Shown: positions 35,529 through 50,193, counted from the stretch's first letter. The stretch: DNA of 64,000 nt from an uncultured Rhodospirillaceae bacterium (GCA_964590195.1 CAZPWJ010000015.1:4494-68493), one strand, 5' to 3'. Notes: a model not told the origin generated them from the letters alone. A program made the numbers and translations.

Positions 35529-36500
35529 TCAAAAAGCCGCGCCACTGCTGGCCGTTGTTGCCTTGTAGCGCCGGTCGTCTGTTTCCTCGCGCAGCAACGC
35601 CAATTCGTCGGCCAGGGCCTGCCGGCCTGCTTCGGCCTCTGGGTCAGTCGGGTTGTAGGCAAATTCGGTGTCCTCGCCCGCTACCCGCGTGCCAACGACG
35701 ATCCTTGGCTTGCTGTAATCATATGGCAGGGCGCGGTGCAGCAGGGCGCGGTTATCCCAGAACAGCAGATCACCGGGGCGATAATTGTGTTCATAGACCC
35801 GCGCCGGATCGGAAATAACAAAATCCAGGAGGGAGCGCAGCAAGGCACCGCTCTCGTCCCGGCTCAAACCGGGAATGGCAAATGCGTGCCTGCCAATGAA
35901 TAGATTCCTAACGCCGGTCTGGGGGTGCACCTTGACCAGGGGGCGCAGGTAGGCCTCGCCATGATAGATCGAGTCCGCCTGCTCGACGGGGAAATCGCCC
36001 ACATCGTTGGCCTGGGAATACTGGTTGGAATGATAGGCGCTAAGGTCCGCGATGCGGTCCTTTGTCTCCTGATCCAGGGCCGCGTATCCGGCCCGGGTGT
36101 CGGCCAGCGCCGTGCCGCCGCCCTGTTCGGGGATATCCACCGCCGCCAGCATGGCGCATTTGCTGCTGTAGGGTTTGTAGGTTGAATCCGTGTGCCAGGC
36201 TTCATTGCCGATAATCATCCGCATGCGCTGGGAATTGATATCCAGGATCTCCCCCCGCGAACCATCGTCGTTGACATCCTGGTTCGAGAGAAAGGATATG
36301 GCCGCGAATTCCAGTTCGCCGAAACGTCTACCGAATTCGGTACAGTCCTCGTTCGATGGGAAAAGTTCCGGAAAGACCAGGAAACCATATTCCAGAAACG
36401 CCGCTTCCATTCCCCCGAATTCGCCGTCGCTTAGGCGGCCCAGATTCACATCCGTGACAACGGCGCCAAACGTCTTGTTTTCCACTGGCCTGATTTTCAT
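35529..36500 (-). CDS. TauD/TfdA-family alpha-ketoglutarate-dependent dioxygenase (second paralog)
   Basis: WHTDSTYKPYSS motif and a C-terminal LHRALPYD segment; 323 aa. Confidence 0.75.
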   Translation of the reverse strand: MKIRPVENKTFGAVVTDVNLGRLSDGEFGGMEAAFLEYGFLVFPELFPSNEDCTEFGRRFGELEFAAISFLSNQDVNDDGSRGEILDINSQRMRMIIGNEAWHTDSTYKPYSSKCAMLAAVDIPEQGGGTALADTRAGYAALDQETKDRIADLSAYHSNQYSQANDVGDFPVEQADSIYHGEAYLRPLVKVHPQTGVRNLFIGRHAFAIPGLSRDESGALLRSLLDFVISDPARVYEHNYRPGDLLFWDNRALLHRALPYDYSKPRIVVGTRVAGEDTEFAYNPTDPEAEAGRQALADELALLREETDDRRYKATTASSGAAF

Positions 36501-36570
36501 CTTGCTTTCCCCCTATGCACTCAAACTCTAAGGCTACAGAAGTGGCCCTTGCAGGTCAAAGAGCAGCTAT

Positions 36571-37902
36571 TTAGCCCTTGGCGGGGAAAAACTGGTTTTC
36601 CGGCCGGGGCAGCCCGAGATTTTCCCGCAACGTCCTGCCCTCGTATTCCGTTCGGAACAGGCCGCGCCTTTGTAGTTCCGGCACCACCTGGTCGACGAAA
36701 TCATCCAGGCCGGCGGGCAGATAGGGGAACATGACGTTGAAGCCGTCGCAGGCGTCCCCCAACAGCCATTCCTGCATTTGATCCGCGATCATCGACGCCG
36801 TGCCAACCATGGCCAGCCCGGAATAGCCGCCCAGGCGTCCGGCCAGCTGGCGGACGTTCAGGTTCTCCCGTTCCGCCAGGGCCAGCACCCGTTCGCGGCC
36901 GCTTTTCGAGGCATTGCTCTCCGGGATCGGCGGCAACGGTCCATCCGGGTCAAAGGCGGAGGCATCATGGCCCAAGGCAATGGAGAGCGAGGCAATGGCG
37001 CTGTCGTAATGCACCAGACTGTCGAGCAGCGCGCGTTTTTCCCTTGCCTCGGCCTCCGTCTCGCCCACGACGACAAAGGCGCCGGGCAGAATTTTCAGAT
37101 GCTCCCGGCCCCGGCCCAGGGCGTCCATGCGGCCCTTGACGTCGGCGTAAAAGGCCTGGCCGTCCGCCAAGGTGGTCTGGGCGGCGAAAATAACCTCCGC
37201 CGTTTCCGCCGCCAGCTGCCGGCCCGCGTCCGAGGCGCCGGCCTGCACGATCACCGGCCAGCCCTGGGGGGGCCGGGCGATGTTCAGCGGCCCGCGCACG
37301 GAGAGATAGTCGCCCTTATGATTGAGAACGTGCAGTTTATCGGGATCGAAAAAAACGCCGCTATCCACGTCACGAATGAAGGCATCATCGGCCCAGCTGT
37401 CCCACAGGCCGGTGATCACATCGACGAATTCCCGAGCCCGGCGGTAACGCTCGCCATGCTCCATATGGTCTTCCATGCCGAAATTCAAGGCGGCATCCGG
37501 GTTCGAGGTGGTGACCAGGTTCCAGGCCGCCCGCCCGCCGCTGATATGGTCCAACGAAGCAAAACGCCGGGCAATCGTATAAGGCGGCTCGAAGGTGGTG
37601 GACGCCGTCGCGATCAGGCCCAGATGCTCCGTCACCATGGCCAGGGCCGGCAACAGGGTCAGGGGGTCGAACGAGGTCGAGGTGGCGCTGCGTTTCAATG
37701 CCTCCATGGGCATGTTCAAAACCGCCAGATGATCGGCCATGAAAAAGGCATCGAACCTGCCCTGCTCCAGCTTTTGCGCATAACGGGTCAGGGCCTTGAG
37801 GTCGAAGTTGGCGTTCGGCGTGCCGCCTGGATAGCGCCAGGCGGCGGTATGAATGCTGGCCGGGCGCATGAAGGCACCCAGGCGCAGTTGACGGTCCCCC
37901 AT
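36571..37902 (-). CDS. LLM-class flavin-dependent monooxygenase, NtaA/SnaA/DszA family
   Basis: 443 aa with a luciferase-like TIM barrel (FMADHLAV ... NLVTTSNPDAALNFG), the length typical of NtaA/DszA. Confidence 0.8.
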   Translation of the reverse strand: MGDRQLRLGAFMRPASIHTAAWRYPGGTPNANFDLKALTRYAQKLEQGRFDAFFMADHLAVLNMPMEALKRSATSTSFDPLTLLPALAMVTEHLGLIATASTTFEPPYTIARRFASLDHISGGRAAWNLVTTSNPDAALNFGMEDHMEHGERYRRAREFVDVITGLWDSWADDAFIRDVDSGVFFDPDKLHVLNHKGDYLSVRGPLNIARPPQGWPVIVQAGASDAGRQLAAETAEVIFAAQTTLADGQAFYADVKGRMDALGRGREHLKILPGAFVVVGETEAEAREKRALLDSLVHYDSAIASLSIALGHDASAFDPDGPLPPIPESNASKSGRERVLALAERENLNVRQLAGRLGGYSGLAMVGTASMIADQMQEWLLGDACDGFNVMFPYLPAGLDDFVDQVVPELQRRGLFRTEYEGRTLRENLGLPRPENQFFPAKG

Positions 37903-37916
37903 GATGTCCCCTTTCG

Positions 37917-38522
37917 TTATTTTTGCTTTTCGATCTCTTCCTCGACGCCCACCAGGCGGTCCTTGCCGAAGAAGATTTCGTCACCGACATAGAAGGTCGG
38001 GCTGCCGAAGGTGCCCCGTTCGGCCGAGGCCGTGGTGTTGGCCAGCAACTCATCCTTGACGGACTGATCCTGAATAGCCTCCGCCATGGCGGCGCTGTCC
38101 AGGCCATCCTTGTCCAGGGCCGCCTTGATCACCTCCGGATCATCCATTTTCAGGCCCTCTTCCCACATATGGCGATACACGGCGTCGACATAGTGTTCGA
38201 AACAGCCCTGGCGCTTGGCCCAAACGGCGCCGCGCATGATTTGCACGGTGTTGACGGGGAAGTGGGGATTGCGGGAATAAGCGGTCAGGCCGTGCTTGTC
38301 GATAAAGCGCTGCATCTCCAACTGACCGTATTCGTTTTTGTTTTTGATGCCTTGAAATTGTTCCATTGGCGATTTGTTGTTGGTCAGTTTAAAAACCCCA
38401 CCAAGCAATACAGGCACATACTCGCAGGCCACACCCGTACGCTCGACGATGCCGGGGATCAGCTTGTGTGAGATGTAGGCGTTGGGGCTGCCGAAATCGA
38501 AATGAAATTCAAAGGTAGGCAT
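37917..38522 (-). CDS. DsbA-like thioredoxin-fold protein, 2-hydroxychromene-2-carboxylate isomerase family
   Basis: 201 aa starting MPTFEFHFDFGSPNAY, typical of HCCA isomerase / DsbA_FrnE-like proteins. Confidence 0.65.
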   Translation of the reverse strand: MPTFEFHFDFGSPNAYISHKLIPGIVERTGVACEYVPVLLGGVFKLTNNKSPMEQFQGIKNKNEYGQLEMQRFIDKHGLTAYSRNPHFPVNTVQIMRGAVWAKRQGCFEHYVDAVYRHMWEEGLKMDDPEVIKAALDKDGLDSAAMAEAIQDQSVKDELLANTTASAERGTFGSPTFYVGDEIFFGKDRLVGVEEEIEKQK

Positions 38523-38554
38523 GTGGGACTTCCTCGATTACAAAAATTGGGTGC

Positions 38555-39799
38555 ATGACTTTGCCCCATAGTATCCCGGCCATGCATGAAAGCGAAACCT
38601 CTCTGTGGCGCGACACCAGGGCGTTGTCCTTTGTCATCTGGCTGTCCATCGCCCAGACCGTGTCCTGGGGCATCATGTTCTATGGCTTCGCGGTTTTCAT
38701 CAAACCCCTGACGGCAGAGTTTGGTTGGAGCAAGGCGGACATCACCGGCGCCTTTACGGTTTCCCTGCTGGTCGTGGGCCTGCTCTCGGTTACGGCGGGC
38801 ACAATTCTTGATCGTTTCGGCGGGCGCTGGTTGATGACCGGGGCCTCGGCCCTGGGCGCGGTGATCCTGTTGGCGGCGGCCCATGTGGAAAACCTGTCGG
38901 CCTATTATGTGGTCTGGATCGGCCTGGGCCTGGCCATGTCGGCAACGCTCTATCCGGCGGGCTTTGCCGTGCTGGTCGCCACCCTGGGCCCGCGGGCGCG
39001 CCAGGGCGTCACAATAATGACCCTGATCGCGGGGTTCGCCAGCACCGTGTTTATTCCGTTCATCAGCCTGTTGTTGGAACTGATGGACTGGCGGGAAACC
39101 TTTACCATGTTGGGGCTGATCCTGGCGGGCATCTGCGTGCCCATCCATGCCTATGTGCTGCGCCTGGAGCGCATACCCGGCACCGGCCAGACCGGGCGGC
39201 CCAGAATTTTCACCATCGATTTGCAGGACGGCCCCGTGGCCGCGGGTCTGCGCAATCCGGCGTTCTGGTGGATCGGCATCTGTTTTACCGCGAACTCCCT
39301 GGTGATGGCCGGGGTCACCGTGCATATCATCCCATTGATGCTGGAACGAGGTTTCGCCATGGCGGCCATCGTCGCCACCATCGCCATGATCGGGCCCATG
39401 CAGGTTGCCGGGCGCGTGGTGATTACCGTGTTCGAAAAATGGCTGGATTTCCGCAAGGCCGGTCTGATGTCAGGCGTCTTCCTGCTGATCGGCTTCGCCC
39501 TGTTGTCACTGGCCCAGCCGGACAATTACCTGAACTATCTGTTCCCCATATTCTATGGCAGCTCCCTCGGTATCATAACCATTGTGCGCGCCCTGGCCGT
39601 GCCCGAGTTGATCGGGCCGGAAGCCTATGGTGCCCTGAACGGTCTGTTGGGACTGGCCTCGTCATTGGCGCTGGCCGTCACGCCGGTGCTGATCAGTTGG
39701 GTCTGGCTGCTCAGCCAATCCTACACCGCGCCCCTGATCGTCCTCTCGGCGGTCGGCTTGGCATCATTGCTCAGTTTCATCATGGCGGTGCGGCGATGA
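38555..39799 (+). CDS. MFS transporter
   Basis: 414 aa with 12 predicted TM segments and MFS-like loops (GTILDRFGGRWL). Confidence 0.75.
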   Translation: MTLPHSIPAMHESETSLWRDTRALSFVIWLSIAQTVSWGIMFYGFAVFIKPLTAEFGWSKADITGAFTVSLLVVGLLSVTAGTILDRFGGRWLMTGASALGAVILLAAAHVENLSAYYVVWIGLGLAMSATLYPAGFAVLVATLGPRARQGVTIMTLIAGFASTVFIPFISLLLELMDWRETFTMLGLILAGICVPIHAYVLRLERIPGTGQTGRPRIFTIDLQDGPVAAGLRNPAFWWIGICFTANSLVMAGVTVHIIPLMLERGFAMAAIVATIAMIGPMQVAGRVVITVFEKWLDFRKAGLMSGVFLLIGFALLSLAQPDNYLNYLFPIFYGSSLGIITIVRALAVPELIGPEAYGALNGLLGLASSLALAVTPVLISWVWLLSQSYTAPLIVLSAVGLASLLSFIMAVRR

Positions 39800-39980: not shown

Positions 39981-40018
39981 TAGAGCATCTCGCAAAAAAT
40001 GGCCGGATGCAGATGCAT
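39981..40018 (-). terminator. rho-independent terminator of the CNPC-repeat/P460 gene
   Basis: Perfect 11-bp inverted repeat GGCCGGATGCA-gatgca-TGCATCCGGCC (39991..40018). On the minus strand it is followed by AUUUUUUG (complement of cgcaaaaaat at 39981..39990). It sits between convergent genes. Confidence 0.55.
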
Positions 40019-40095
40019 GCATCCGGCCAGTCTTGGAGGTGTGACAACAGGATGAACGAACGGTCCAAACGAACCAATCGTACTAACGTGTGGGA

Positions 40096-41331
40096 CTAAC
40101 GTACGCGGTACTCATCCGGCAGGAACATCAGGCTGTCCTGTTCCTCGGCGACAGCCATGTGGCATTCGTAGCAGAAGTTCATCTTGGCCGAGCCGGCGCC
40201 ATTGGTGGTGCCGAATACCTGGCCGTTGGGCAGCACCATGGTGTAACGCCAGTTGCCTGAGGCCTTGTTGAAACCAGCCGGCATTTTCTCCATCAGGAAC
40301 AGCGGCCCCGCCGCCAGCTTGCCGTCAGCCTTGGCGACGAAGCTGTCCTTGGCCAATAGGGCACCAACGGCCATGCGGCCCGCCGCTTCATATTTGCCGT
40401 AGTTGCCGGCGGAGGTATTGCCGTAATTGTTGACGTAGCGCCCGCCATGGGTGTCCGAAACATAGGGCTGCGAGGAATAGTTCTTCCAATCCTTGTAGTG
40501 GCTGGCCACGGTCAGACCGGACTTGGAATAGCCGGCAACAAGATCCTCGACCAGGCAGTCATAGGCCTTGCGCGCCTCGGCCGCCGTCAACTCGGCCACG
40601 GCACCGGCGCCACAGGGATTACACGGATTGCAGGGATTGCAAGGGCCGCAGCCTTTCTTGGCGGCGCATGGGTTGCACGGATTGCAGGCTTTCTTGGCGG
40701 CACATGGATTGCATGGGCTGCAAGCTTTCTTGGCGGCGCACGGGTTGCAGGCGCCACAGCCCTTCTTTTTGGCCGCACAGGGATTGCACAATGAAGCCTT
40801 GACCAGGCGTGGAATGGCGCATTTCAGTGATGCCGAGGCGCCGCCGGCACCGCAAGGATTACAGGGATTACAGGCACCGCAACCCTTTTTCGCGGCGCAG
40901 GGATTGCACGGATTACAGGCCTTCTTGGCGGCGCAGGGATTGCAGGCGCCACAGGCCTTTTTCGCCGCACAGGGATTGCAGGCGCCGCAACCTTTCTTCT
41001 TGGCCGCGCATGGATTGCAGGCACCGCAGCCGCGTTTCTTACTGGCGCACGGGTTGCACGCGGCGGCCAGCCGCATTGGTCCTTGGTCTCTGGGCGCGGC
41101 GGGTGCGTTGGGCTGTTGGCCCCCGGCCAAAGTCCCCCTGGCGACGGCGGTGGGATTAATCCCATTGGAGGCGCCGGACGCTGAAGCCGTCTGGGCGGCT
41201 CTGGCAAAGGCGACATCAGCTAAAGGAATAGTGGCACCGGCCGCCAAGGCCGCCCCCATGACCACTTGCAACACGGATGATTTGATGATTTTGCTTTTCG
41301 TTGATCGCACGATCCAGCCTCCAGCATTCAT
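40096..41331 (-). CDS. secreted fusion protein: signal peptide + two arrays of CNPC/Lys-rich tandem repeats + C-terminal cytochrome P460-family domain (CXXCH)
   Basis: ATG at 41331 with a GGGGAA RBS (the ORF-track start 41346 is TTG). The N-region/hydrophobic signal peptide is followed by an Ala/Gly/Gln/Pro linker. Residues ~97-246 hold 17 C-N-P-C motifs in units such as CNPCAAKK(K)GCGA and CNPCNPC, arranged as two diverged ~75-aa blocks. The C-terminus ...[10 protein letters not shown]...[26 protein letters not shown] resembles cytochrome P460 (GNW.Y... C..CH ... D.VF..FYP). Confidence 0.6.
40609..41058 (-). repeat. in-frame coding tandem repeat (9-39 bp units, gggattgca core) encoding CNPC / CAAKK units
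   Basis: The plus strand shows a reiterated gggattgca(c/g)gg... with ttcttggcggcgca(c/t)gg units in two blocks (40609..40800 and 40835..41058). Synonymous third-position drift between blocks argues against a recent duplication. Confidence 0.85.
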
Positions 41332-41458
41332 TTGATTGTTCCCCAATTTTTTTCGTGCCCTATATCTGCACCCGCCACCCGGTAGAAACGAGTCACATCA
41401 ACTCAAACTTCCGTGAGCGGGCCTGGGAATCCGATGCCACCGTCTGTAATTTCACATC

Positions 41459-42346
41459 ATGAGGAAGCTTTCGAAGCGTGCACCGGCATTCATCATGGCA
41501 GTCTGTACCGTCATCATCGGTGCGGTGGATGACGGTGTGCAGGCGGGGGAAATCCCGGTGCCGGCAACCGTCAACATCCAGGCGGGTGGCTTCATCGCCG
41601 GTTCCGGCCAGGCCGAGCGTGACGCAGCCTATGATCTGGACCAGGCCGCCTATGGCCATGACCGCACCCGTCAGTGGGGCTGGTACGATGATGAACGGCC
41701 CCGGCGGCGGCATCACTTGCCGGCCTTTGCCATCACCCGGAGCACGATTACCAACCACCAATATGCGGCCTTTGTCGCGGCCACCGGGCACCCCGCCCCC
41801 GACGTCGACCGGGCGACCTGGCTCGGCTACCGTCTGATCCATCCCTATCAGCGCACCTGGCGCCACGCCTGGCGCAAACGGCTGCCGCCGCCGGGACGGG
41901 AAGAGCATCCGGTGGTACTCGTTTCCCACGTCGATGCCCTGGCCTATGCCGCATGGCTAAGCGCCGAGAGCGGACATAGCTGGCGCCTGCCAAACGAGTT
42001 GGAGTGGGAAAAGGCGGCACGGGGTACCGATGGCCGATACTTTCCCTGGGGCAATGAATATGACGCTGGGCGTCTGAACAGCCATGACGCGGGCCCATTT
42101 GACACCATGGCGGTTGGACAATTCAGCAACGGGGCCAGCCCCTTTGGTCTGTTGGATCCCGCCGGCCAGGTTTTTGAATGGACCGCCACACCGGCAAACG
42201 GCCAAAGTGGGCAGCCGGCCCGCTATCTGGTCAAGGGTGGCTCATGGGATGACAAGGGGTGCGGCGTTTGCCGGCCCGCCGCGCGCCATGGCCGACCGGC
42301 GGCCATAAAGCATATTCTGATCGGCTTTCGGTTGGTCAGGGAATAA
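41459..42346 (+). CDS. formylglycine-generating enzyme (FGE/SUMF1) family protein, periplasmic (NirV-like)
   Basis: Signal peptide, then HPVVLVSHVDALAYAAWL, RLPNELEWEKAARG, and C-terminal GGSW...R...IGFRLV motifs of the FGE-sulfatase family. Divergent from the CNPC/P460 gene with 127 bp between the starts. Confidence 0.8.
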   Translation: MRKLSKRAPAFIMAVCTVIIGAVDDGVQAGEIPVPATVNIQAGGFIAGSGQAERDAAYDLDQAAYGHDRTRQWGWYDDERPRRRHHLPAFAITRSTITNHQYAAFVAATGHPAPDVDRATWLGYRLIHPYQRTWRHAWRKRLPPPGREEHPVVLVSHVDALAYAAWLSAESGHSWRLPNELEWEKAARGTDGRYFPWGNEYDAGRLNSHDAGPFDTMAVGQFSNGASPFGLLDPAGQVFEWTATPANGQSGQPARYLVKGGSWDDKGCGVCRPAARHGRPAAIKHILIGFRLVRE

Positions 42347-42384: not shown

Positions 42385-43086
42385 ATGAGTTTGTTCGACG
42401 GTTTATCGCGGCAACGGTTGGAGAAAATGGCCGCCGCTGGGGCTGAAGTCCTGGAGTGCTACCGGGTGCTGGAGAAGACCTCGGCCAACGTGGTGGGCCA
42501 GGTGATCGAACACGGCGGTACCTTCTATGAATGGGATCATTACCCGGAAGGCGACGTCTATGACCATGAAACCTATGGGCAGTATTATTACCATTCGCAC
42601 CGCCCGGAAGAGGGCGAACACGGCCATTTCCACCTCTTCGTCCGGCGCGAGGCCATTCCCGACCGGATGCGCCCCATCCCCTTTGCCGGTACCGATGAGT
42701 GGCCCGAGGGCGACGAGGTCATCTGTCATCTGGGCGCTATCTCCATGGACCAGAAGGGCTTTCCGACGCATCTGTTCACCACCAACCGCTGGGTCACCGG
42801 TGAACATTGGTACGGCGCCGCCGACGTGACCGAACTGCTGGACAAATTCGTTATCGACCACACCTTTCCCTCCTGGGCCGTAAACCGCTGGATCACGGCC
42901 ATGGTGGCCCTGTATCAGCCGCAGATGGCGCAATTGCTGATCGAACGGGATGCCGCCGTGCAGACCTGGTCCGATAGCCATGCGGGCGATGTGCTGGAGG
43001 ACCGGGATCTGGAGCTGACCTCGAAAATCGCTCTGGACATCCCGCACCAGATCAAGCAAATCAACAAGGCATTGAAAAAATTCTAG
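42385..43086 (+). CDS. hypothetical protein with His-rich patch (YYYHSHRPEEGEHGHFHLF)
   Basis: 233 aa from ATG 42385. No family recognised by eye; likely cytoplasmic; co-oriented with the FGE gene and msrB. Confidence 0.45.
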   Translation: MSLFDGLSRQRLEKMAAAGAEVLECYRVLEKTSANVVGQVIEHGGTFYEWDHYPEGDVYDHETYGQYYYHSHRPEEGEHGHFHLFVRREAIPDRMRPIPFAGTDEWPEGDEVICHLGAISMDQKGFPTHLFTTNRWVTGEHWYGAADVTELLDKFVIDHTFPSWAVNRWITAMVALYQPQMAQLLIERDAAVQTWSDSHAGDVLEDRDLELTSKIALDIPHQIKQINKALKKF

Positions 43087-43100
43087 GGGAATTTTGAGGA

Positions 43101-43505
43101 ATGGGGATGGATAAAATCACAAAGACCGACGCGGAATGGCGGGCACAGCTGACGGACGAGGAATATCACGTGGCCCGAAAAAAGGGCACCGAACGGCCCT
43201 TTGGCCCCGGCTATAACAGCTGTCACGATGCAGGCATCTACACCTGTGTCTGCTGTGGGTTGGAGCTGTTTTCGTCCGAGGCAAAGTTCGATTCTGGCAC
43301 CGGCTGGCCCAGCTTTCACACCCCCCTGGTGGCGGAGAACGTGGCCGAGGAGTCTGACAATTCCCTGTTCATGCGGCGCACGGAAGTCCTGTGCGCCCGC
43401 TGCGACGGCCATCTTGGCCACGTCTTTCCCGATGGCCCTGCGCCTACGGGCTTGCGCTATTGCCTGAATTCGGCTTCCCTGCGCCTGGTTCAGGACGACA
43501 AATAG
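43101..43505 (+). CDS. msrB: peptide-methionine (R)-S-oxide reductase MsrB
   Basis: Two CxxC zinc motifs (CVCCGLELF ... [12 protein letters not shown]) and the catalytic RYCLNS motif. Confidence 0.9.
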
Positions 43506-43518: not shown

Positions 43519-44178
43519 ATGAGTACGCAGAGCACAAGTATCAAGGCCGTATTGTGGGATTTCGGCGGCGTTTTCACGACATCGCCCTTCGCCGCCTTCG
43601 CCCGCTATGAAGAAGAACATGGCCTGCCCAAGGATTTCATCCGTTCCATCAATGCCACCAACCCGGACGCCAATGCCTGGGCCAAGATGGAGCGGAACGA
43701 GGTCAGTCACGCGGAATTCGGCGATCTGTTCGAGGCGGAATCCGCTGCCGCCGGCCATGCGGTCAACGGCAGCGAAATCCTGCCCCTGTTGTCGGGCAGC
43801 CTGCAGCCCGAAATGGTCACGGCCCTGGAGATTGTCGCCAAGAACTACAAGACGGCCTGTCTGACCAACAACATGCGCACGGGCCATGGCCCCTCCATGA
43901 GCCGGGACCCGGAAAAGGCGGCGCAGATCGGCAAGGTCATGGAAATCTTTGAACAAGTGGTGGAATCCAGCCAGGTCGGCATCCGCAAGCCGGAGCCAAA
44001 ATTCTATCAGATCGCCTGTGAAATGCTGGGCGTGGAGCCGTCCCAGGCGGTCTTCCTCGATGATCTTGGCGTCAACCTGAAACCGGCCAAGGCCATGGGC
44101 ATGACAACCATCAAGGTTATTTCAGCCGGCCAGGCCATCGACGATCTGGAAGCGGTGCTGGGTATTTCGCTCCGCTAG
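43519..44178 (+). CDS. HAD-superfamily hydrolase
   Basis: VLWDFGGVF (DxG motif I) ... FLDDLGVN (motif IV); 219 aa. Confidence 0.7.
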   Translation: MSTQSTSIKAVLWDFGGVFTTSPFAAFARYEEEHGLPKDFIRSINATNPDANAWAKMERNEVSHAEFGDLFEAESAAAGHAVNGSEILPLLSGSLQPEMVTALEIVAKNYKTACLTNNMRTGHGPSMSRDPEKAAQIGKVMEIFEQVVESSQVGIRKPEPKFYQIACEMLGVEPSQAVFLDDLGVNLKPAKAMGMTTIKVISAGQAIDDLEAVLGISLR

Positions 44179-45859: not shown

Positions 45860-46675
45860 ATGACCAAAGCGAGTACAGTATTTCTAGTTGGCGCCGGTCC
45901 GGGGGATCCGGAACTGTTGACTATGAAGGCGCACCGATTGCTGCAGGCCGCCGAAGTGGTGGTCTATGACCGCTTGGTTTCGGCTGAAATTCTGGCTCTG
46001 ATCCCGTCGGGCACGACATTGATCAGCGTTGGCAAACAGCCCCGCAACCATTCCGTCCCGCAGCCCGAAATCAACCAATTGCTGGTCCGTTTGGCAAAAT
46101 CCGGGCGCAATGTCGTGCGCCTGAAGGGCGGCGATCCTTATGTCTTTGGCCGCGGCTCGGAAGAGGCCATGACCCTGGTCGAAAATGGCGTGCCATTCGA
46201 AGTGGTGCCGGGCATTACCTCGGCCTCGGCCTGTTCGGCCTCCGTCGGCATGCCGCTGACCCATCGCGGCCTGGCCACGGGCGTGCGTTATCTGACCGGC
46301 CATTGCCGGGAAGACAGCGAGCTGGATTTCGACTGGCGGGGCCTGGCCGATCCATCGACTACCCTGGTGATCTATATGGGCATGGCCAATGTGGAACAGA
46401 TCACCACGAATTTGATTGAACACGGCGCCGACCCGGAATTACCCGCCGCCGCCATCAACAATGGCAGTACGCCGGCGCAACGGCACATTGTCTCCACGTT
46501 GGAAAGCCTGGCCAGCGACGCGAGGGCCGCCGAGTTTAATGGACCGGTATTGTTCGTCGTCGGTCAAGTCGTGGCTCTGCATGCCATTTTGGGCGCGCAG
46601 CCGGATGCCAATCAAGATCAGGCCCCAGGTGCCGAACAGGACGATGAACAGCCGAATTCCGCCGTGGGCAGCTAG
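45860..46675 (+). CDS. nirE: uroporphyrinogen-III C-methyltransferase (SUMT) of the heme d1 pathway
   Basis: 271 aa tetrapyrrole methylase (VFLVGAGPGDPELLTMKA ... VVRLKGGDPYVFGRGSEE). Confidence 0.85.
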   Translation: MTKASTVFLVGAGPGDPELLTMKAHRLLQAAEVVVYDRLVSAEILALIPSGTTLISVGKQPRNHSVPQPEINQLLVRLAKSGRNVVRLKGGDPYVFGRGSEEAMTLVENGVPFEVVPGITSASACSASVGMPLTHRGLATGVRYLTGHCREDSELDFDWRGLADPSTTLVIYMGMANVEQITTNLIEHGADPELPAAAINNGSTPAQRHIVSTLESLASDARAAEFNGPVLFVVGQVVALHAILGAQPDANQDQAPGAEQDDEQPNSAVGS

Positions 46676-47015
46676 CGCCTTTCTGACAGCCGCCTTTACC
46701 GCTACCTTGACTGCCGCCGCGACAACCCCAGTTTGGAGCGAAGGAAGCATCTCGGAAACGCGGCAGAAGGAATTGCTGTATCTCTTGCAACAGGATTGCG
46801 GCTCCTGCCATGGCCTGACCCTCAAGGGCGGCCTTGGCGGTCCCCTTTTACCCGCCAACTTGGCGGATAAACCCGATGATGCCCTGGTTGAGGTTATCAT
46901 GCAGGGTCTGCCCGGTACGCCCATGCCACCCTGGCGGTTCCTGCTCAAGGAAAAGGAGGCCGCCTTCCTGGTGCGGGCCATGAAGTCGGGCCAAACTTTG
47001 AAAATAGAGCAATGA
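46644..47015 (+). CDS. nirC: monoheme c-type cytochrome c55X
   Basis: Signal peptide plus a single CGSCHG heme motif and a MPPW-type distal Met region. The ATG at 46644 overlaps the nirE 3' end by 32 nt (the ORF track begins at 46416 in the same frame). Confidence 0.7.
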   Translation: MNSRIPPWAASAFLTAAFTATLTAAATTPVWSEGSISETRQKELLYLLQQDCGSCHGLTLKGGLGGPLLPANLADKPDDALVEVIMQGLPGTPMPPWRFLLKEKEAAFLVRAMKSGQTLKIEQ

Positions 47016-47025
47016 AAGCCGAACA

Positions 47026-48228
47026 ATGAGGATCCTTGCGAAAATTTCCGCCGTTCTGGCAACTGCCGTTCTGCTTGTCTCGGCCATGGCCAATGGCCAT
47101 GCCGATGATGCTTCCATACTGCGCGGTACCGGCGATCTGGGCCTGGTGATCGAACGCGCCCATGGCAGCATCCAGATTATCGATACCACACACCGCGCGG
47201 CCCTGGGCCGGGTCAAGGGCCTGGGCGATCTCAGCCATGCCTCCGCCGTCTATTCACGGGATGGGCGCTACGCCTACATTTTTGGCCGCGATGGCGGCTT
47301 GAGCAAGGTTGATATTTTGCAACAGCGGATCGTCAAGCGGATCGTACAGGGCGGCAATAGTATTGGCGGCGCGATCTCCCAGGACGGCAGCCTGGTCGCC
47401 GTCTCCAATTACAAGCCGGGCGGGGTCAAGGTGTTTAATGCGGCCACGCTGGAGCAAGTGGCCGATATTCCGGCCCAGGCCAGTGACGGCAGCGGCCTGT
47501 CCAAGGTGGTCGGCCTGGCCGACGCGCCGGGGCAGCGCTTTATCTTTTCGTTGTATAACGCGGGCGAAATCTGGATCGCTGATTTTTCCGACCGCGCCAA
47601 CATGCGGCTCACGAAACACACGGACATTGGCGAACTGCCCTATGACGGCCTGATTACCGATGATGGCCGTTATTACATCGCCGGCCTGTTTGGCGAGGAT
47701 GGCATGGCCATGCTGGATTTGTGGCAGTCCGAGAAAGGCGTGCGCCGCATACTCGACGGCTATGGCCGGGGCGAGGAGAAGTTGCCGGTCTACAAGATGC
47801 CCCATCTGGAAGGCTGGGCCCGCGCCGGCGATGTGATTTTCCTGCCCGCCGTGGGCCGGCACGAAGTCCTGATGGTGGAACCCGGCAGCTGGAAAGAAGT
47901 CGGGCGCATCGCCGTTCATGGCCAGCCGATCTTTGCCGTGGCACGGCCCGACGGGCGCCAGGTCTGGGTCAATTTCGCCCATCCGCGAAACGACACGGTG
48001 CAGGTCATCGATGTGCCCAGCCGCAAGATCGTGCACGAATTCAAGCCGGGCAAGGCGGTGCTGCATCTGGAGTTCACGCCGCGCGGCGAACAGGTATGGA
48101 TTTCCGTACGCGATGCCAACCGGGTCGATGTCTATGACACCGAAAGTTTCAAACAGCTGCGGACCCTGCCGGCACAAAAACCATCGGGCATTTTCCTTAC
48201 CGCCCGGGCCAATCGGATCGGCTTGTAG
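47026..48228 (+). CDS. nirF: heme d1 biosynthesis protein NirF (cd1-type beta-propeller without a cytochrome c domain)
   Basis: 400 aa with a signal/lipoprotein-like N-terminus and 8-bladed-propeller repeats homologous to the nirN propeller in the same window. Confidence 0.85.
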   Translation: MRILAKISAVLATAVLLVSAMANGHADDASILRGTGDLGLVIERAHGSIQIIDTTHRAALGRVKGLGDLSHASAVYSRDGRYAYIFGRDGGLSKVDILQQRIVKRIVQGGNSIGGAISQDGSLVAVSNYKPGGVKVFNAATLEQVADIPAQASDGSGLSKVVGLADAPGQRFIFSLYNAGEIWIADFSDRANMRLTKHTDIGELPYDGLITDDGRYYIAGLFGEDGMAMLDLWQSEKGVRRILDGYGRGEEKLPVYKMPHLEGWARAGDVIFLPAVGRHEVLMVEPGSWKEVGRIAVHGQPIFAVARPDGRQVWVNFAHPRNDTVQVIDVPSRKIVHEFKPGKAVLHLEFTPRGEQVWISVRDANRVDVYDTESFKQLRTLPAQKPSGIFLTARANRIGL

Positions 48229-48232
48229 CGCC

Positions 48233-48691
48233 ATGCCCACCGTGCAATCCATCACGGAGCAGGAGCGGGCGCTGCTGAACGGCTATCAGCGGGACTTTCC
48301 CCTGGAACCCCGCCCTTACGCGGCCATGGCGGCGGCCATGGGGATGGACGAGGATGCCCTGCTGGCCATGCTGCGGGATTTGCGGGAACGCGGTATCCTG
48401 GGCCGGGTCGGCGTCACTGTACGGCCCAACAGCGCCGGTGCCTCCACCCTGGCGGCATTGGCGGTGCCGCCGGCGCGCCTGGATGAAGTGGCCGAACAAG
48501 TCAGCGCCCTACCTTCGGTAAATCATAATTACGCCCGCGAGCATGATTTTAATCTCTGGTTTGTCCTGACCGCCGCCGATGACGCCGGGTTGGATGAGGC
48601 CCTGGCCCAGATCGAAAACGAAACCGGTCTGATGCCCATAAAGCTGCCCCTGGACGCGGAATATCACATCGATCTGGGATTCACTCTATGA
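48233..48691 (+). CDS. nirD: siroheme decarboxylase subunit (AsnC/Lrp-like)
   Basis: 152 aa from ATG 48233, 4 bp after the nirF stop. It shares the HNYAREHDFNLWFVL motif with the next three paralogs. Confidence 0.8.
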   Translation: MPTVQSITEQERALLNGYQRDFPLEPRPYAAMAAAMGMDEDALLAMLRDLRERGILGRVGVTVRPNSAGASTLAALAVPPARLDEVAEQVSALPSVNHNYAREHDFNLWFVLTAADDAGLDEALAQIENETGLMPIKLPLDAEYHIDLGFTL

Positions 48692-49191
48692 TCGAACTTG
48701 CGGACCAGGATCACCAGCTACTGGCGCGCCTGGCCGATGGGCTGCCCCTGGTATCCCGGCCCTATGCCGAATTGGGTGCGGAATTGGGTCTGTCCGAGGA
48801 TGATGTTATCGCCTGCCTGCGCCGCCTGGTGGACGGCGGCGTCATCCGCCGTTTCGGCCTGATCGTACGGCATCATGAATTGGGCTATCGGGCCAATGCC
48901 ATGTCGGTCTGGGATGTGCCCGATGACCAGGTCGATGCCCTGGGCAAGGATCTGGCCGCCTACCCTTTCGTTACCCTGTGCTACCGCCGCCGCCGCCAGC
49001 CGCCGAACTGGCCCTATAATCTATTCGCCATGGTGCACGGCAAGGAACGGGCCCATGTGCTGAGCCAGATCGCGCAGCTGAATGAACAACTTGGCCTGGA
49101 ACATCTGCGCCACCACGTCTTGTTCTCCACCAAACGCTATAAACAAAGCGCGGCCCGCTTCGGCGGCCGCGGCATGGCGAAGGCCGGCTGA
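48688..49191 (+). CDS. nirL: siroheme decarboxylase subunit (AsnC/Lrp-like)
   Basis: 167 aa; HHELGYRANAMSVWDVPDD ... PYNLFAMVHG motif shared with the nirH paralog; ATGA overlap with nirD. Confidence 0.8.
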   Translation: MIELADQDHQLLARLADGLPLVSRPYAELGAELGLSEDDVIACLRRLVDGGVIRRFGLIVRHHELGYRANAMSVWDVPDDQVDALGKDLAAYPFVTLCYRRRRQPPNWPYNLFAMVHGKERAHVLSQIAQLNEQLGLEHLRHHVLFSTKRYKQSAARFGGRGMAKAG

Positions 49192-49652
49192 TGACGGAAA
49201 AACACACATTGGACGAGATCGACCGCCGGATCATTAATAGCCTGCAGGGTGGCTTTCCCATCTGCCCATCGCCCTATGCCGCCGTGGCAAATGACATGGG
49301 CATTGACGAGGATGACCTGCTGCACCGTTTGCAGCGTCTGCGTGACGACGGTCTGTTGAGCCGCTTCGGGCCCATGTATCACGCCGAAAAACTGGGCGGT
49401 GCCCTGACCCTGGCCGCGATTTCCGTACCCGAGGCGCGCTACGACGAAGTCGCCGAACAGGTCAATGCCCACGCCGAGGTCGCCCATAATTACGCCCGTG
49501 AACATCAGCTGAATATGTGGTTTGTTCTGGCAACGGAACAATTTTCGCGGATTGATGAAGTAATCGCCGAGATCGAGGCGGAAACCGGTCTGAAGGTCTT
49601 TAACATGCCGAAAAAGGAAGAGTACTTTATCGGCCTGAGATTTGAAGCATGA
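49191..49652 (+). CDS. nirG: siroheme decarboxylase subunit (AsnC/Lrp-like)
   Basis: 153 aa; HNYAREHQLNMWFVL motif; overlaps nirL by 1 nt. Confidence 0.8.
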   Translation: MTEKHTLDEIDRRIINSLQGGFPICPSPYAAVANDMGIDEDDLLHRLQRLRDDGLLSRFGPMYHAEKLGGALTLAAISVPEARYDEVAEQVNAHAEVAHNYAREHQLNMWFVLATEQFSRIDEVIAEIEAETGLKVFNMPKKEEYFIGLRFEA

Positions 49653-50134
49653 ACGGCATCGTGGACGAAACCGACCGGCGCATCATCGTCGCCACCCAGG
49701 GTGGTTTGCCCCTGGTCGCGGAACCTTATCAGGCGGTGGCCGATGAATTGGATATGGATGTCGCCGACGTCATGGCGCGCATGCAGCGGATGCTGGACGG
49801 CGGCCTGATCCGCCGCATCGGCGCCGTGCCCAACCATTATGCCCTGGGCTACCGTGCCAACGGCATGTCGGTCTGGGATGTGCCGGACGAAGATATCTCG
49901 GACATTGGCAAAATGGTTGGGGATCTGGATTTCGTCTCGCACTGCTATCATCGGCCCCGGCATTTGCCGTATTGGAGCTATAATCTGTTTGCCATGGTGC
50001 ATGGCCGGGATCGGGATGAAGTATCGGACAAAGTAGAACGAATCGCAAAGTTGATGGGGATCAAGGATCGCGGGCACGAGATTTTATACTCTCACCGCAT
50101 CCTGAAAAAGACGGGTTTGCGTTTCACGGCCTGA
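49649..50134 (+). CDS. nirH: siroheme decarboxylase subunit (AsnC/Lrp-like)
   Basis: 161 aa; NHYALGYRANGMSVWDVPDED ... SYNLFAMVHG; ATGA overlap with nirG. Confidence 0.8.
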   Translation: MNGIVDETDRRIIVATQGGLPLVAEPYQAVADELDMDVADVMARMQRMLDGGLIRRIGAVPNHYALGYRANGMSVWDVPDEDISDIGKMVGDLDFVSHCYHRPRHLPYWSYNLFAMVHGRDRDEVSDKVERIAKLMGIKDRGHEILYSHRILKKTGLRFTA

Positions 50135-50193
50135 GTTCGAGTGAGATAGGCCGCCAGTAATAGACCGCCTGCAATAAATTTGGGGACACATTC

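Follow-up and report, generated by a model that had tools for sequence, protein, structure and literature searches.

Analysis of a 64,000-nucleotide stretch of DNA from an uncultured Rhodospirillaceae bacterium (the whole stretch is hereafter called the window) demonstrated that one of its genes encodes a protein in which a predicted periplasmic haem domain of the cytochrome P460 type is fused to two arrays of Cys/Lys-rich repeats. This fusion had been proposed in an initial annotation of the DNA, and it was confirmed by an intact open reading frame (ORF), a fold match and the occurrence of the fusion in relatives. The identity and anatomy of the protein taken jointly, that is, its fold, its haem, the insertion of the arrays, a disulfide, the mobile repeat module and the coupling to genes for an FGE-like protein and a DUF6969 protein, can be regarded as highly probable.

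Gene structure and export signals

The coding sequence of the NPC-repeat/P460 fusion (NPC-P460) occupies 40096–41310 on the minus strand and encodes 404 amino acids (aa) followed by a TAG stop codon. The longest possible ORF runs without interruption from a TTG codon at 41346 to 40096 on this strand, but the GTG codon at 41310 was considered the most likely start, since a ribosome-binding site (GGAGG; 41318–41322, minus strand) lies 7 nt upstream of it and the homologue N-termini (MRSTKSK... and MKSHKSNLL...) agree with it. The CTGGAGGCTGGATC block of the ribosome-binding site region was kept in nine orthologous intergenic regions. An intrinsic terminator (40000–40029, minus strand) is composed of a 12-bp stem with eight GC pairs followed by TTTTTT, so that the ribosome-binding site and the strong terminator noted in the initial annotation were both found. 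The conserved intergenic element GGAAGTTTGAGTTGATGTGACTCGTT (41387–41412, minus strand) is oriented toward the P460 gene and was kept in 9/9 orthologous divergent intergenic regions. It looks like an ECF-sigma promoter (GGAAG-N17-CGTT) and may act as one; the bare pattern was not enriched in the window (four matches versus 1.67 expected). A search of Rfam returned no match in the region from 38.0 to 45.5 kb.

The first 36 residues (41203–41310, minus strand) read as a Sec-type signal peptide with a Lys-rich n-region, a hydrophobic core and AFA ahead of the predicted cleavage site. The signal peptide is conserved in homologues, in agreement with the secretion claimed earlier, and no twin-arginine motif was found in it. 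The prediction that the gene product is a Sec-exported periplasmic haem protein is thus strongly supported.

Cysteine/lysine arrays and the inter-array spacer

The remainder of the protein, encoded throughout on the minus strand, consists of a low-complexity linker (aa 37–84; 41059–41202) with an NPxAVAR motif and a pre-array junction of the form phi-x-L-A-A-C, array 1 (aa 85–153; 40852–41058) with six CxxCxxC-type units, an inter-array spacer (40789–40851), array 2 (aa 175–233; 40612–40788) and the P460-fold haem domain (aa 234–404; 40099–40611). The units of array 1 are CGACNPC or CNPCNPC, divided by AAKK(K)(G/A), and TRF detected tandem periods of 36 and 72 nt. Together, the arrays comprise about 151 residues (aa 85–233 from the GTG start), as the earlier estimate of approximately 150 had suggested. 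The whole protein contains 16 CNPC motifs, 18 CxPC motifs, 38 Cys, 36 Lys and one CXXCH, which corrects the 17 CNPC motifs and more than 40 Cys counted initially. The arrays are composed of 23% Cys, 21% Ala, 15% Lys, 13% Pro, 11% Asn and 10% Gly, and aromatic residues are missing.

When array 2 was compared with part of array 1, 56 of 61 aligned residues matched (92% protein identity), and 32 of the 56 matching residues were encoded by different synonymous codons, with a nucleotide identity of 79%. Contrary to the initial annotation, the two blocks are therefore not fully identical at the protein level, whereas their synonymous divergence was borne out. Since the protein is conserved while its codons have diverged, and since the architecture is conserved in homologues, these results support the earlier view that the repeat architecture is under selection and reflects neither recent slippage nor an artefact. 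The number of CNPC motifs per protein ranged from 2 to 36, and copy number varied freely even between close relatives, including one 12-aa unit indel between relatives at 97% identity.

The spacer motif S-x-K-C-x-[VI]-P-R-L-x-x-A-A was found at 111 sites in the best 120 homologues. Its Cys (Cys164; 40819–40821) covaries with a Cys in the first helix of the haem domain (Cys252; 40555–40557), with counts of 139/2/31/57 (Fisher 1.7e-28). P460-domain relatives without arrays also exist, and in one relative (P0497) arrays are present even within a beta-hairpin of the haem domain. The array-less relatives and the covariation of the two Cys suggest that the arrays are insertions around a disulfide. 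Array 1 appears to have been inserted between the signal peptide and the C-x-V-P-R-L segment, and array 2 between this segment and the first haem-domain helix. Cys164 and Cys252 probably form a disulfide, which would close array 2 into a loop and leave array 1 as a free tail.

Other readings of the Cys motifs were considered. Neither the C-x-V-P-R-L spacer nor the L-A-A-C junction could be matched to a lipobox, a signal-peptidase site or an FGE motif, owing to a misfit in register and in distance from the h-region, and the spacer Cys is better explained as the putative disulfide partner of the helix Cys. The FGE-substrate motif C-x-P-x-R does not occur in the units, which read C-N-P-C-A or C-N-P-C-N with no Arg at +4, and the spacer C-x-[VI]-P-R is in another register. 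Cofactor-loaded Fe-S proteins are exported via Tat, and an Fe-S reading of CxxCxxC was set aside because the signal peptide appears to be of the Sec type without a twin-arginine motif. The array unit CGACNPC fits the CGxCxxC pattern of zf-CXXC, but the Pfam match (PF02008; 16.4 bits versus a cutoff of 26.5; E value, 0.009) was far below the gathering score, and TET CXXC domains in the PDB matched the array only at an E value of 0.3.

Haem domain and its assignment to the P460 family

To determine the family of the haem domain, profile, structure and profile–profile comparisons were combined. The Pfam family PF16694 matched the window protein with an E value of 1.2e-5. In this HMM check, which had been suggested in the initial annotation, the score of 26.1 bits was just under the gathering score of 27. 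Among six homologues scanned, four matched at 24.6–34.5 bits and two gave no match at E ≤ 0.1, and a precomputed PF16694 match was present on most of the best 120 homologues. An AF2 model of the domain (pLDDT, 93.2; pTM, 0.89) was compared with the PDB by Foldseek, and the 14 best matches were all cytochromes c'-beta or P460 (probability, 1.00; TM, 0.44–0.70). Twelve of these had E values of at most 0.001 (1.9e-5 to 1e-3) and the next match had an E value of 0.19, so that P460 and c'-beta were the only significant structural matches. The closest known proteins are the P460s NeP460 (2JE2/2JE3), McP460 (6HIU) and NsP460 (6AMG) and the cytochromes c'-beta 7EAD and 7S5O. It is therefore strongly supported, at the level of the model, that the C-terminal 170 residues adopt the P460/c'-beta beta-sheet fold, in line with the family originally proposed.

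When the haem domain was used to query PDB sequences by phmmer and by profiles, no solved P460 was found, and the relationship was visible only by Pfam, hhalign and fold comparison. The sub-cutoff Pfam score and these null searches indicate that the domain represents a remote P460 subfamily. Alignment by hhalign to the verified NeP460 sequence gave an E value of 4.4e-5, with the CXXCH and a Lys aligned. The CYECH motif (40159–40173) lies 24 residues before the C-terminus, and this distance was 21–26 residues in all of the best 120 homologues; the prediction that the domain carries one c-type haem at CYECH is strongly supported.

The Lys of the family motif ‘LAKDSF’ was placed by hhalign on Lys70 of NeP460 (‘TVTVKELV’; numbering from the 2025 P460 review), with a probability of only 69%, which makes the register likely but not certain. 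The column at this position is K in 215/229 proteins. Lys321 (40348–40350) is a candidate for the haem–Lys cross-link and likely corresponds to Lys70 in the N. europaea protein. NH2OH-oxidising P460s carry a precisely placed distal carboxylate (Glu96 in NeP460 and Asp102 in McP460) plus a capping residue. The NeP460 loop bearing Glu96 is missing or unalignable in the NPC-P460 domain and falls in an hhalign gap, and the distal carboxylate position could not be placed. A near-invariant Glu in ‘LFLMEKM’ and an invariant, polar T-H-G-x-R loop, which aligns with the capping loop of NeP460, are candidates for distal residues.

Distribution of the fusion and the mobile NPC module

A homologue search returned 803 homologues, and relatives of the haem domain were encoded in at least 551 species-level genomes. 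The fusion architecture was present in all of the best 120 of the 803 homologues and in all 76 complete ORFs recognised among 80 loci, which include long-read chromosomes and isolates. One locus (L087) had been read as ‘split’, with a stand-alone P460 beside a small NPC protein, but re-reading of the ORF yielded a full 367-aa fusion, and the Rosetta-stone argument was therefore dropped.

The initial annotation had suggested a search for the CNPC module in other genomes. A search with the repeat alone gave 693 hits, among which were stand-alone proteins as well as proteins that combine the repeat with cytochrome c, LysM or other domains. The module occurs as secreted proteins of approximately 90 aa, in combination with LysM, and at either end of a SoxA-like mono-haem cytochrome c. 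The haem domain of this NPC–cytochrome c–NPC protein showed weak similarity to SoxA or SoxA-TsdA (27 bits versus a threshold of 110; PDB E value of about 0.01–0.02), and an additional invariant Cys (‘QFC’) follows its CXXCH at a distance of about 40 residues. The junction phi-x-phi-A-A-C-N-P-C is found alike in stand-alone NPC proteins and in the fusions to P460 and to cytochrome c. Some NPC modules are free of Lys (P0159), and the polycationic character is therefore dispensable. Judging from this distribution, the NPC repeat is a mobile module on predicted periplasmic proteins and not a private N-terminal extension of P460.

Gene neighbourhood

The gene divergent from the P460-NPC gene (41459..42346, plus strand) encodes an FGE-sulfatase-family protein (PF03781; E value, 9e-43) with a signal peptide. 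Its conserved C-terminal motif, KGGSWDDKGCG[VI]CRPAARH, contains a CG[VI]C pair that was found in 68 of 72 neighbouring FGE-like copies (one further copy has CGFC) and that sits in a loop aligned with the C-terminal region of SUMF2, in the SUMF catalytic region. The nearest solved structures are ToxD and CalU17 (the best matches), OvsA and FGE (E value, 1e-12), and the NCBIfam hits to SenA, EgtB, PvdO, GldK and OvoA were all far below their cutoffs. Next on the plus strand are genes for a DUF6969 protein (42385..43086), which has no signal peptide but has the invariant His/Glu/Asp clusters EWDH, YYYHxH and EHGHFH, for MsrB (43101–43505) and for a HAD-type phosphatase (43519–44178), forming an operon-like run with the FGE-like gene up to 44178. 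Fold comparison of DUF6969 gave no informative match. The order FGE-like, DUF6969, MsrB (Pfam SelR) and HAD recurs in the related loci L002, L003, L005 and L007–L014 and in other loci.

The FGE-like gene and DUF6969 lie beside P460 fusions in 22 of 46 well-flanked genome loci, including 6/6 close relatives; about half of the P460-NPC loci have neither gene within 10 kb. The pair also flanks stand-alone NPC genes. Starting from DUF6969 as the anchor, an NPC ORF was found within 1.5 kb in 24/35 well-flanked metagenome loci, and the DNA farther than 4 kb from the DUF6969 anchors, 107 kb in all, contained none. Unbiased neighbour clustering agreed with this coupling. These results strongly support a genetic link between the NPC module and two proteins, one a periplasmic member of the FGE family and the other a cytoplasmic His-rich DUF6969 protein; the co-occurrence with FGE genes raised in the initial annotation is real and extends to DUF6969.

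Other neighbours were less regular. A small class I cytochrome c adjoins the P460-NPC gene in 27/81 loci, and SCO1/SenC and a cupredoxin-like protein are present in some loci. Genes for Sulf_transp (YeeE/YedE-like), DUF302 and cysteine-desulfurase-like proteins occur in several DUF6969/NPC loci; sulfur-related neighbours were found in only 10–14 of 81 loci and may reflect lineage synteny. In distant lineages, a true Sel1-repeat protein often lies immediately downstream, at a frequency that is not firm, as the single-linkage neighbour cluster was contaminated by alternative-frame ORFs. In the window, the P460-NPC gene is flanked to one side by genes for TauD, a luciferase-like monooxygenase, a DsbA-like protein and an MFS protein and to the other by genes for haem d1 (nir) biosynthesis, which begin at 45.8 kb, 4.5 kb from it. 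The gene thus lies between an organosulfur/redox island and the nir locus, as first described, but the nir genes do not adjoin in related loci. A link to denitrification was rejected on this ground, and the nir locus therefore provides no functional evidence.

Comparison with known systems

To our knowledge, the P460s characterised so far all consist of a single domain and come from nitrifiers, methanotrophs and a few other bacteria. Like P460 and c'-beta, NPC-P460 is predicted to be secreted and has a mono-haem beta-sheet domain of about 160–170 aa with the CXXCH near the C-terminus, and it shares with the P460s a Lys at the cross-link position, where c'-beta has Phe or Met. In contrast, the domain shares only 14–21% identity with the solved P460/c'-beta proteins, its Pfam scores straddle the cutoff, and a conserved Cys lies in an additional helix at its N-terminus. 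The usual P460 context of ammonia or methane oxidisers is missing. The architecture had been thought undescribed, and no description of it was found in the literature searched, in which no P460 carries Cys-rich arrays of approximately 150 residues (including the 2025 P460 review). Searches on DUF6969, on P460 with cysteine-rich repeats and on FGE with periplasmic copper found nothing relevant, and the nirV/FGE literature gave no useful lead.

Bufferins/oxazolins are Sec-exported, Cys-rich, copper-chelating RiPPs/proteins that are modified by MNIO and are sometimes long and repetitive, with up to 58 Cys. NPC-P460 resembles them in its predicted periplasmic location, Sec signal and repetitive, Cys-motif-rich sequence, and rare bufferin fusions (Buf1|Cytochrom_C|FGE-sulfatase) unite a Cys module, a c-type haem and an FGE domain, as here (PMC12452194). 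However, the NPC unit is unrelated to DUF2282, Buf_6/12Cys and EGKCG, and its partners are the FGE-like protein and DUF6969; no MNIO (DUF692), DUF2063 or DoxX was found among the Pfam-annotated neighbours in the window and nine related loci. In composition, the arrays are similar to metallothioneins (approximately 23% Cys with Lys, Ala and Gly, no aromatics and low complexity), but they would be periplasmic rather than cytosolic, are built of regular Asn-Pro tandem units and are fused to haem domains.

A c-type haem beside a flexible Cys-bearing arm is also a feature of SoxXA-SoxY/TsdA, whereas the SoxY GGCGG arm and the SoxYZ/B/CD genes are missing here and the P460 domain is unrelated to SoxA. 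As in FGE/sulfatase systems, an FGE-sulfatase-fold neighbour with a C-terminal Cys pair accompanies many C-x-P sites, but there is no sulfatase in the locus. In true FGE, the Cys pair is spaced as Cx4C. The FGE-like protein differs in its predicted secretion and CxxC spacing, and it is no closer to FGE than to ToxD, CalU17, EgtB or OvsA.

Possible functions of the arrays

We tentatively favour a model in which a buffer of thiophilic metal (Cu(I)) or of thiols is joined to a redox haem, although the mechanism as a whole must be seen as possible rather than established. In the periplasm, the arrays would provide a flexible surface of many thiolates, resembling a metallothionein, which could bind thiophilic metal ions (Cu(I) being the most likely) and/or be consumed sacrificially as a thiol buffer. 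Electrons would pass between the attached low-potential haem and either the bound metal or the thiol/disulfide array, probably via a neighbouring soluble cytochrome c. The FGE-like partner, of a cuproprotein family, might load, oxidise or modify the Cys-x-Pro sites, and the whole set might be expressed as an envelope stress module alongside MsrB. This leaning is based on the composition of the arrays, the weak zf-CXXC (CGxCxxC) match, the Cys pair of the FGE-like protein, the SCO1/SenC and cupredoxin-like proteins in some loci, the co-operonic MsrB, the cytochrome c neighbours and the published Buf1|Cytochrom_C|FGE-sulfatase fusions in bufferin families (PMC12452194).

Several observations count against it. 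The Lys-free NPC modules and the half of the loci that lack the FGE-like/DUF6969 pair do not fit readily; Sulf_transp, DUF302 and the SoxA-like haem domain point to sulfur chemistry; the FGE-like protein is far from true FGEs; and DUF6969 is without an informative fold match. The hhalign alignment did not locate the distal carboxylate that NH2OH oxidation requires. In addition, CxxC pairs in an oxidising periplasm would tend to form disulfides rather than thiolates.

Sulfur chemistry is central to an alternative that we consider unlikely, in which the array Cys would be a carrier arm for small sulfur or nitrogen species, with the haem coupling a substrate oxidatively to the thiols of its own protein, as SoxXA loads the Cys of SoxY. 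The substrate could be thiosulfate or sulfide, or NO/NH2OH reacting via an electrophilic {FeNO}6 to give S-nitrosothiols, with the arrays as a high-capacity sink or relay. The SoxA-like mono-haem domain flanked by the module, with its invariant extra Cys, the sulfur-related genes in several DUF6969/NPC loci, the organosulfur genes adjoining in the window and the cytochrome c neighbours as possible electron acceptors are consistent with this proposal, and P460 chemistry does proceed via nucleophilic attack on {FeNO}6 (2025 P460 review). On the other hand, the SoxA similarity is under every curated threshold, no sox genes or SoxYZ-like partners were seen in the loci, and the sulfur neighbours are infrequent. 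The loop insertions and the LysM fusion would also be easier to reconcile with some general physical property of the arrays than with a precisely acting swinging arm.

The strong, repeated coupling to a secreted FGE-family protein with a conserved Cys pair raises the question of whether the arrays are instead substrates, the C-x-P Cys being converted to formylglycine or otherwise modified and the aldehydes reacting with Lys so that the protein becomes cross-linked or anchored in the envelope, which would make the module a matured scaffold and not a metal binder. C-x-P, the core of the FGE motif CxPxR, is present in every unit, Ala-flanked Lys pairs follow each unit, and the conserved pre-array junction and spacer motif could be recognition elements. 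Nevertheless, the Arg of CxPxR is missing from the units, the enzyme has CxxC rather than Cx4C and is nearer to ToxD, CalU17 and OvsA than to FGE, Lys-free modules exist, and the enzyme is missing nearby in half of the P460-NPC loci. This proposal was considered improbable.

We give equally little credence to an ordinary P460 with a passive tether, which would detoxify NH2OH/NO for a denitrifier while the arrays, themselves chemically inactive, would be no more than a disulfide-stapled, polycationic spacer or envelope anchor. The P460 features of the domain, the haem d1/nir genes 4.5 kb away in this host and the LysM fusion, which suggests association with the envelope, would accord with it, and freely varying copy number (2–36 CNPC; the 12-aa indel) is typical of linkers. 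However, the nir adjacency is not conserved, the unit residues are conserved despite synonymous divergence, and the module is coupled to the FGE-like gene and DUF6969 even where there is no haem domain.

Finally, chance, an assembly artefact and a pseudogene are effectively refuted: although 36/72-nt tandem repeats are prone to assembly error and gene callers sometimes truncate such genes (L087 was called only as its C-terminal 140 aa), the collapsed or expanded repeats or frameshift envisaged as a danger in the initial annotation are at odds with a single uninterrupted frame, with the same fusion in the best 120 homologues and in every complete ORF among 80 independent loci, and with array blocks that differ at 21% of nucleotides and would not easily be collapsed.

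Significance

P460 cytochromes have been studied as sources of NO/N2O and as models for unusual haem cross-links. The present analysis reveals that marine heterotrophs, among them metagenome-assembled genomes whose names suggest oxygen-poor or deep waters, contain a P460-type clade that is large and uncharacterised, and most clade members near the P460-NPC gene bear tens of Cys on flexible arrays. The NPC repeat is a transferable module that occurs time and again together with c-type haem domains and with two functionally uncharacterised proteins, one of which is from a cuproenzyme family. NPC arrays, the secreted CG[VI]C FGE-family protein and DUF6969 may constitute a widespread envelope system, so far unrecognised, in bacteria from the sea and from sediments, mostly Alphaproteobacteria. 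In this system, the poly-Cys module may be grafted onto the tails or loops of periplasmic c-type haem proteins (P460-type or SoxA-like) or produced as a free peptide, and the FGE-like protein may mature or load it. As a haem-coupled poly-thiolate device for copper (or sulfur/NO), it would have no described counterpart; this broader proposal is possible and is offered with reserve. Cultured carriers exist (Pelagibius litoralis DSM 21314, Sneathiella sedimenti and Sneathiella sp. HT1-7), and the question is therefore directly testable. If the arrays bind copper or carry sulfur/NO adducts, they would represent a new coupling of haem redox chemistry to a periplasmic poly-thiol reservoir, and, if true, this would yield first clues to the function of DUF6969, which has more than 5000 homologous proteins/clusters, and of a distinct FGE-like subfamily.

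Sequence features of the P460-NPC gene

The P460-NPC gene lies in one unbroken frame on the minus strand (40096..41346), as the initial annotation had proposed. Its likely start is the GTG codon at 41310 (minus), since homologues start at an equivalent MRSTKSK or MKSHKSNLL and GGAGG is found 7 nt upstream. A terminator composed of a 12-bp stem and T6 is located at 40029..40000 on the same strand. By inspection of its sequence, the protein starts with a predicted Sec signal peptide: a Lys-rich n-region leads into a hydrophobic core, and AFA precedes the cleavage site. The protein contains 16 CNPC, 18 CxPC, and 24 CxxC motifs, 38 Cys, and 36 Lys; the earlier counts of 17 CNPC and more than 40 Cys were slightly too high. 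Its only haem motif, CYECH, lies 24 residues before the C-terminus.

Tandem Repeats Finder detected repeat periods of 36 and 72 nt at 40613-40788 and 40856-41031. Each repeat unit (NPC repeat) opens with three Cys in the pattern CxxCxxC (CGACNPC or CNPCNPC) and closes with AAKK(K)(G/A). The arrays are composed of Cys (23%), Ala (21%), Lys (15%), Pro (13%), Asn (11%), and Gly (10%), and aromatic residues are absent. Array 2 matches part of array 1 at 56 of 61 residues with 79% DNA identity, and 32 of these 56 residues are encoded by different codons. The description of the two blocks as identical in protein and synonymously diverged was essentially right, except that protein identity is 92%, not 100%. 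An antisense ORF of 255 aa (40568-41335, plus strand), rich in GLHGLQ repeats, mirrors the CNPC arrays; every related locus has an equivalent spurious ORF, a possible source of false gene calls.

The haem domain

The C-terminal domain, which had been assigned to the P460 family, matched Pfam Cytochrome_P460 over residues 283-402 (numbered from the TTG start) with an E value of 1.2e-5 and 26.1 bits, just below the gathering score of 27. Family members matching the model scored 24.6-34.5 bits. Neither phmmer nor two family profiles found a P460 among PDB matches of the domain, which is therefore a remote P460 branch. The C-terminal 169 residues were modeled confidently by AlphaFold2 from a 48-sequence input (pLDDT, 93.2; pTM, 0.89). 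The best 14 Foldseek matches in the PDB were all cytochromes c'-beta (7EAD, 7S5O) or P460 (2JE2, 6HIU, 6AMG, and mutants), with E values of 1.9e-5 to 1.2e-3 (12 at E ≤ 0.001), probability 1.00, and TM scores of 0.44-0.70; the next match had an E value of 0.19.

A 24-sequence family profile was aligned by hhalign with the sequence of Nitrosomonas europaea cytochrome P460 (NeP460) recovered exactly from the PDB. The alignment (E value, 4.4e-5) superposed the CXXCH motifs and placed the Lys of the family segment 'LAKDSF' on Lys70 of NeP460 'TVTVKELV'. According to a 2025 review, Lys70 is the residue whose cross-link to haem defines P460s; cytochromes c'-beta have Phe or Met instead. This column is Lys in 215 of 229 relatives with a complete domain. 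The NeP460 loop bearing the catalytic Glu96 could not be aligned to the family profile. Within the family, a T-H-G-x-R segment is invariant and the Glu of 'LFLMEKM' is nearly so, a hint of a candidate polar pocket. The P460-NPC protein is a secreted haem protein of the P460 fold in which the cross-link position is occupied by a conserved Lys.

Distribution of the family and position of the arrays

Significant homologues in a protein search numbered 803. Each of the best 120 is 256-494 aa long, carries 2-36 CNPC motifs, and has its single CXXCH 21-26 residues before the C-terminus. When one genome per species was scanned, at least 551 species proved to encode haem-domain relatives. Most carriers are marine Alphaproteobacteria (Rhodospirillaceae, Sneathiellales, Kiloniellales, Pelagibius, and Rhodovibrionaceae); both isolates (Pelagibius litoralis DSM 21314 and Sneathiella sedimenti, among others) and closed long-read chromosomes are represented. 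The closest homologue, from a Rhodospirillaceae MAG, is 98% identical, and repeat copy number differs by one 12-aa unit even between 97%-identical proteins. Of the 80 top-ranking genome loci and five additional ones, 76 had a complete ORF, and in every one of these it was fused. An assembly artefact is ruled out by this fusion, the size of the family, the isolates, and the long-read chromosomes.

Homologues are labeled 'hypothetical' or 'cytochrome P460 family protein' in databases, and repeat-rich members are probably under-annotated. At locus L087 (3648-4513 and 4698-5801), only the C-terminal 140 aa of the fusion are retained in the public gene call, and a run of masked N interrupts the FGE-like gene (FGE-sulfatase family).

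When 1.84 billion cluster representatives were searched exhaustively with phmmer, 545 clusters matched (317 at E ≤ 1e-10), many of them 200-240 aa long and consisting of a signal peptide, a helix, and the domain, with no array. The inter-array motif S-x-K-C-x-[VI]-P-R-L-x-x-A-A was found at 111 sites in 120 proteins. Its Cys covaries with a Cys of the first helix ('YDCL'): both are present in 139 proteins and neither in 57 (Fisher test, 1.7e-28, uncorrected for phylogeny). Two proteins, both alignment gaps, have the spacer motif without the helix Cys, and 31, mostly relaxed C-[VA]-[VI]-x-R, single-array, or truncated forms, retain the helix Cys but lack the strict motif. Array-less relatives keep the pair directly after the signal peptide. 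The simplest reading of these sequences is a Cys164-Cys252 disulfide between spacer and helix (numbered from the GTG start); array 2 would then be an insertion into the loop that it closes, and array 1 an insertion in the N-terminal tail. In one 710-aa homologue (P0497), NPCAA arrays lie within a beta-hairpin of the P460 domain, between 'SFRVPPT' and 'GPLFIMEKM', which shows that NPC repeats are able to colonise loops; this protein also has a long C-terminal extension after the domain.

The NPC repeat in other proteins

Searching with the arrays alone gave 693 matches, P460 fusions among them. The other architectures included secreted proteins of approximately 90 aa with only a signal peptide and NPC units (four proteins), proteins of approximately 260 aa with arrays flanking a mono-haem cytochrome c domain (NPC-cyt c-NPC; four proteins, and observed at 11 loci), one LysM fusion, and three fusions to domains without assignment. 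A phi-x-phi-A-A-C-N-P-C junction before the array is common to all architectures, the P460 fusions included. The haem domain of NPC-cyt c-NPC (approximately 115 aa) has invariant CxxCH, PYPH, and 'QFC', and a His/Cys-ligated haem is possible from these motifs. It resembles SoxA/TsdA and CCP/MauG haem domains only below threshold (PF21342, weak; TIGR04484, 27 bits vs 110; PDB E values, 0.003-0.02). The gene often ends approximately 30 nt before DUF6969.

Gene neighbourhood and partner proteins

A run of four genes is divergent from the P460-NPC gene: the FGE-like gene, with a signal peptide (41459-42346), DUF6969, without one (42385-43086), MsrB (43101-43505), and a HAD phosphatase (43519-44178). 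This arrangement recurs in three related loci with different outer flanks, and a more distant locus retains DUF6969 nearby. In 22 of 46 species-level loci with adequate flanks, FGE-like and/or DUF6969 lay within 10 kb of the P460-NPC gene (6/6 at ≥ 75% haem-domain identity, 9/11 at 62-75%, and 7/29 below). In three loci, a stand-alone NPC gene has a divergent FGE-like gene on one side and DUF6969 downstream; in one, L087, the full fusion, a small NPC gene, and DUF6969 follow in succession.

The suggested co-occurrence of the repeat with FGE genes was borne out. Among 80 metagenome loci anchored on DUF6969, 35 had at least 1.5 kb on both sides; an ORF with ≥ 4 NPC motifs lay within 1.5 kb in 24 and an FGE-like gene was present in 18. 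In 107 kb of sequence at distances above 4 kb from DUF6969, no such ORF occurred; the whole 64-kb window has a single one. Unbiased clustering of neighbours in 81 loci recovered NPC-cyt c-NPC (36), FGE-like (35), a cupredoxin-like 169-aa protein (14), DUF302 (12), and Sulf_transp (10). These results show that the NPC repeat, with its conserved Cys arrays, is a mobile module and that it is genetically coupled with the FGE-like gene and DUF6969.

Among proteins of the FGE fold, the FGE-like protein is divergent. Its best PDB matches were ToxD (6e-22), CalU17, OvsA, and FGE (1e-12), and every match to NCBIfam equivalogs was far below cutoff. The C-terminus KGGSWDD[KS]GCG[VI]CRPAARH is conserved, with CG[VI]C in 68 of 72 neighbour copies and CGFC in one more. 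SUMF2 aligns in the region of this motif; in true FGEs, the Cys pair that binds Cu is located in this loop and is spaced as Cx4C. For DUF6969, 5212 homologues were found, and it carries invariant His/Glu/Asp clusters; its model was confident (pLDDT 89.5), and structural comparison gave no informative neighbour.

A class I cytochrome c adjoins the P460-NPC gene in 27 of 81 loci. A secreted Sel1-repeat protein of approximately 155 aa lies 6-100 nt downstream of the P460-NPC gene in nine loci from distant lineages (Kiloniellales, Pelagibius, and others), often with class I cytochrome c just upstream; this is a conserved setting distinct from the FGE-like/DUF6969 one.

A haem d1 biosynthesis cluster (45860-53732, plus strand) encodes a nirE-like TP_methylase, a nirF-like d1 domain, four NirD/L/G/H-type AsnC-like proteins, the radical-SAM NirJ, NirN (cytochrome c and d1), and CbiX; no nirS was seen in the scanned part of the window. 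The adjacency of nir genes is not conserved in related loci and therefore lends no support to a role in denitrification. An organosulfur/redox set at 35529-39799 (TauD-family dioxygenase, luciferase-like monooxygenase, DSBA-like protein, and MFS transporter) is syntenic with the P460-NPC gene in ten close relatives and not in more distant ones.

The divergent intergenic region

A conserved block of approximately 30 nt, TCACGGAAGTTTGAG..GATGTGACTCGT, separates the P460-NPC and FGE-like genes in 9/9 orthologous loci. In the window it is a GGAAG-N17-CGTT element (41383-41416, core 41387-41412, minus) pointing at the P460-NPC gene, with a second conserved element, GGTGCAGAT, approximately 20 nt downstream. 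The alphaproteobacterial EcfG consensus is GGAAC-N16-17-CGTT, and the block is a putative ECF/EcfG-type promoter, as a lead only. Across the window, matches to the bare pattern show no enrichment (4 vs 1.67 expected), so the support for the element is its conservation. A perfect palindrome at 20425-20452, GGAACGGGTCTGCCACAGGCCGCGTTCC-like, matches the ECF pattern on both strands and is probably a terminator stem or operator.

Possible function of the arrays

Our preferred reading, a tentative one, is that the arrays would form a periplasmic metallothionein-like poly-thiolate that buffers oxidants and/or a thiophilic metal, for which Cu(I) is the likeliest candidate; a low-potential haem would be wired to this buffer, and the cuproprotein-like FGE-family partner would service it. 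The reading is based on the composition of the arrays, a weak resemblance of CGxCxxC to zf-CXXC (a zinc-binding motif), the Cys pair in the FGE-like protein, the occurrence at some loci of SCO1 and cupredoxin-like neighbours, and co-operonic MsrB. It is also favoured by the published Buf1|Cytochrom_C|FGE-sulfatase fusions, an occasional form of copper-chelating bufferins (PMC12452194), in which the same three ingredients are combined. As a rival, the arrays could carry sulfur or NO species covalently, in the manner of SoxY, as the SoxA-like sister architecture NPC-cyt c-NPC and the Sulf_transp and DUF302 neighbours would suggest. They could also be a passive tether on an ordinary NH2OH/NO-detoxifying P460. 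A further rival, maturation of array Cys to formylglycine with subsequent Lys cross-linking, would use the C-x-P sites of the arrays, but these lack Arg at +4.

The searched literature contained nothing on the NPC-P460 architecture, the NPC repeat, or DUF6969, and a 2025 review of the P460 superfamily mentions neither fusions nor Cys-rich modules. The association of NPC repeats with the FGE-like protein and DUF6969 may represent a new system of putative function.
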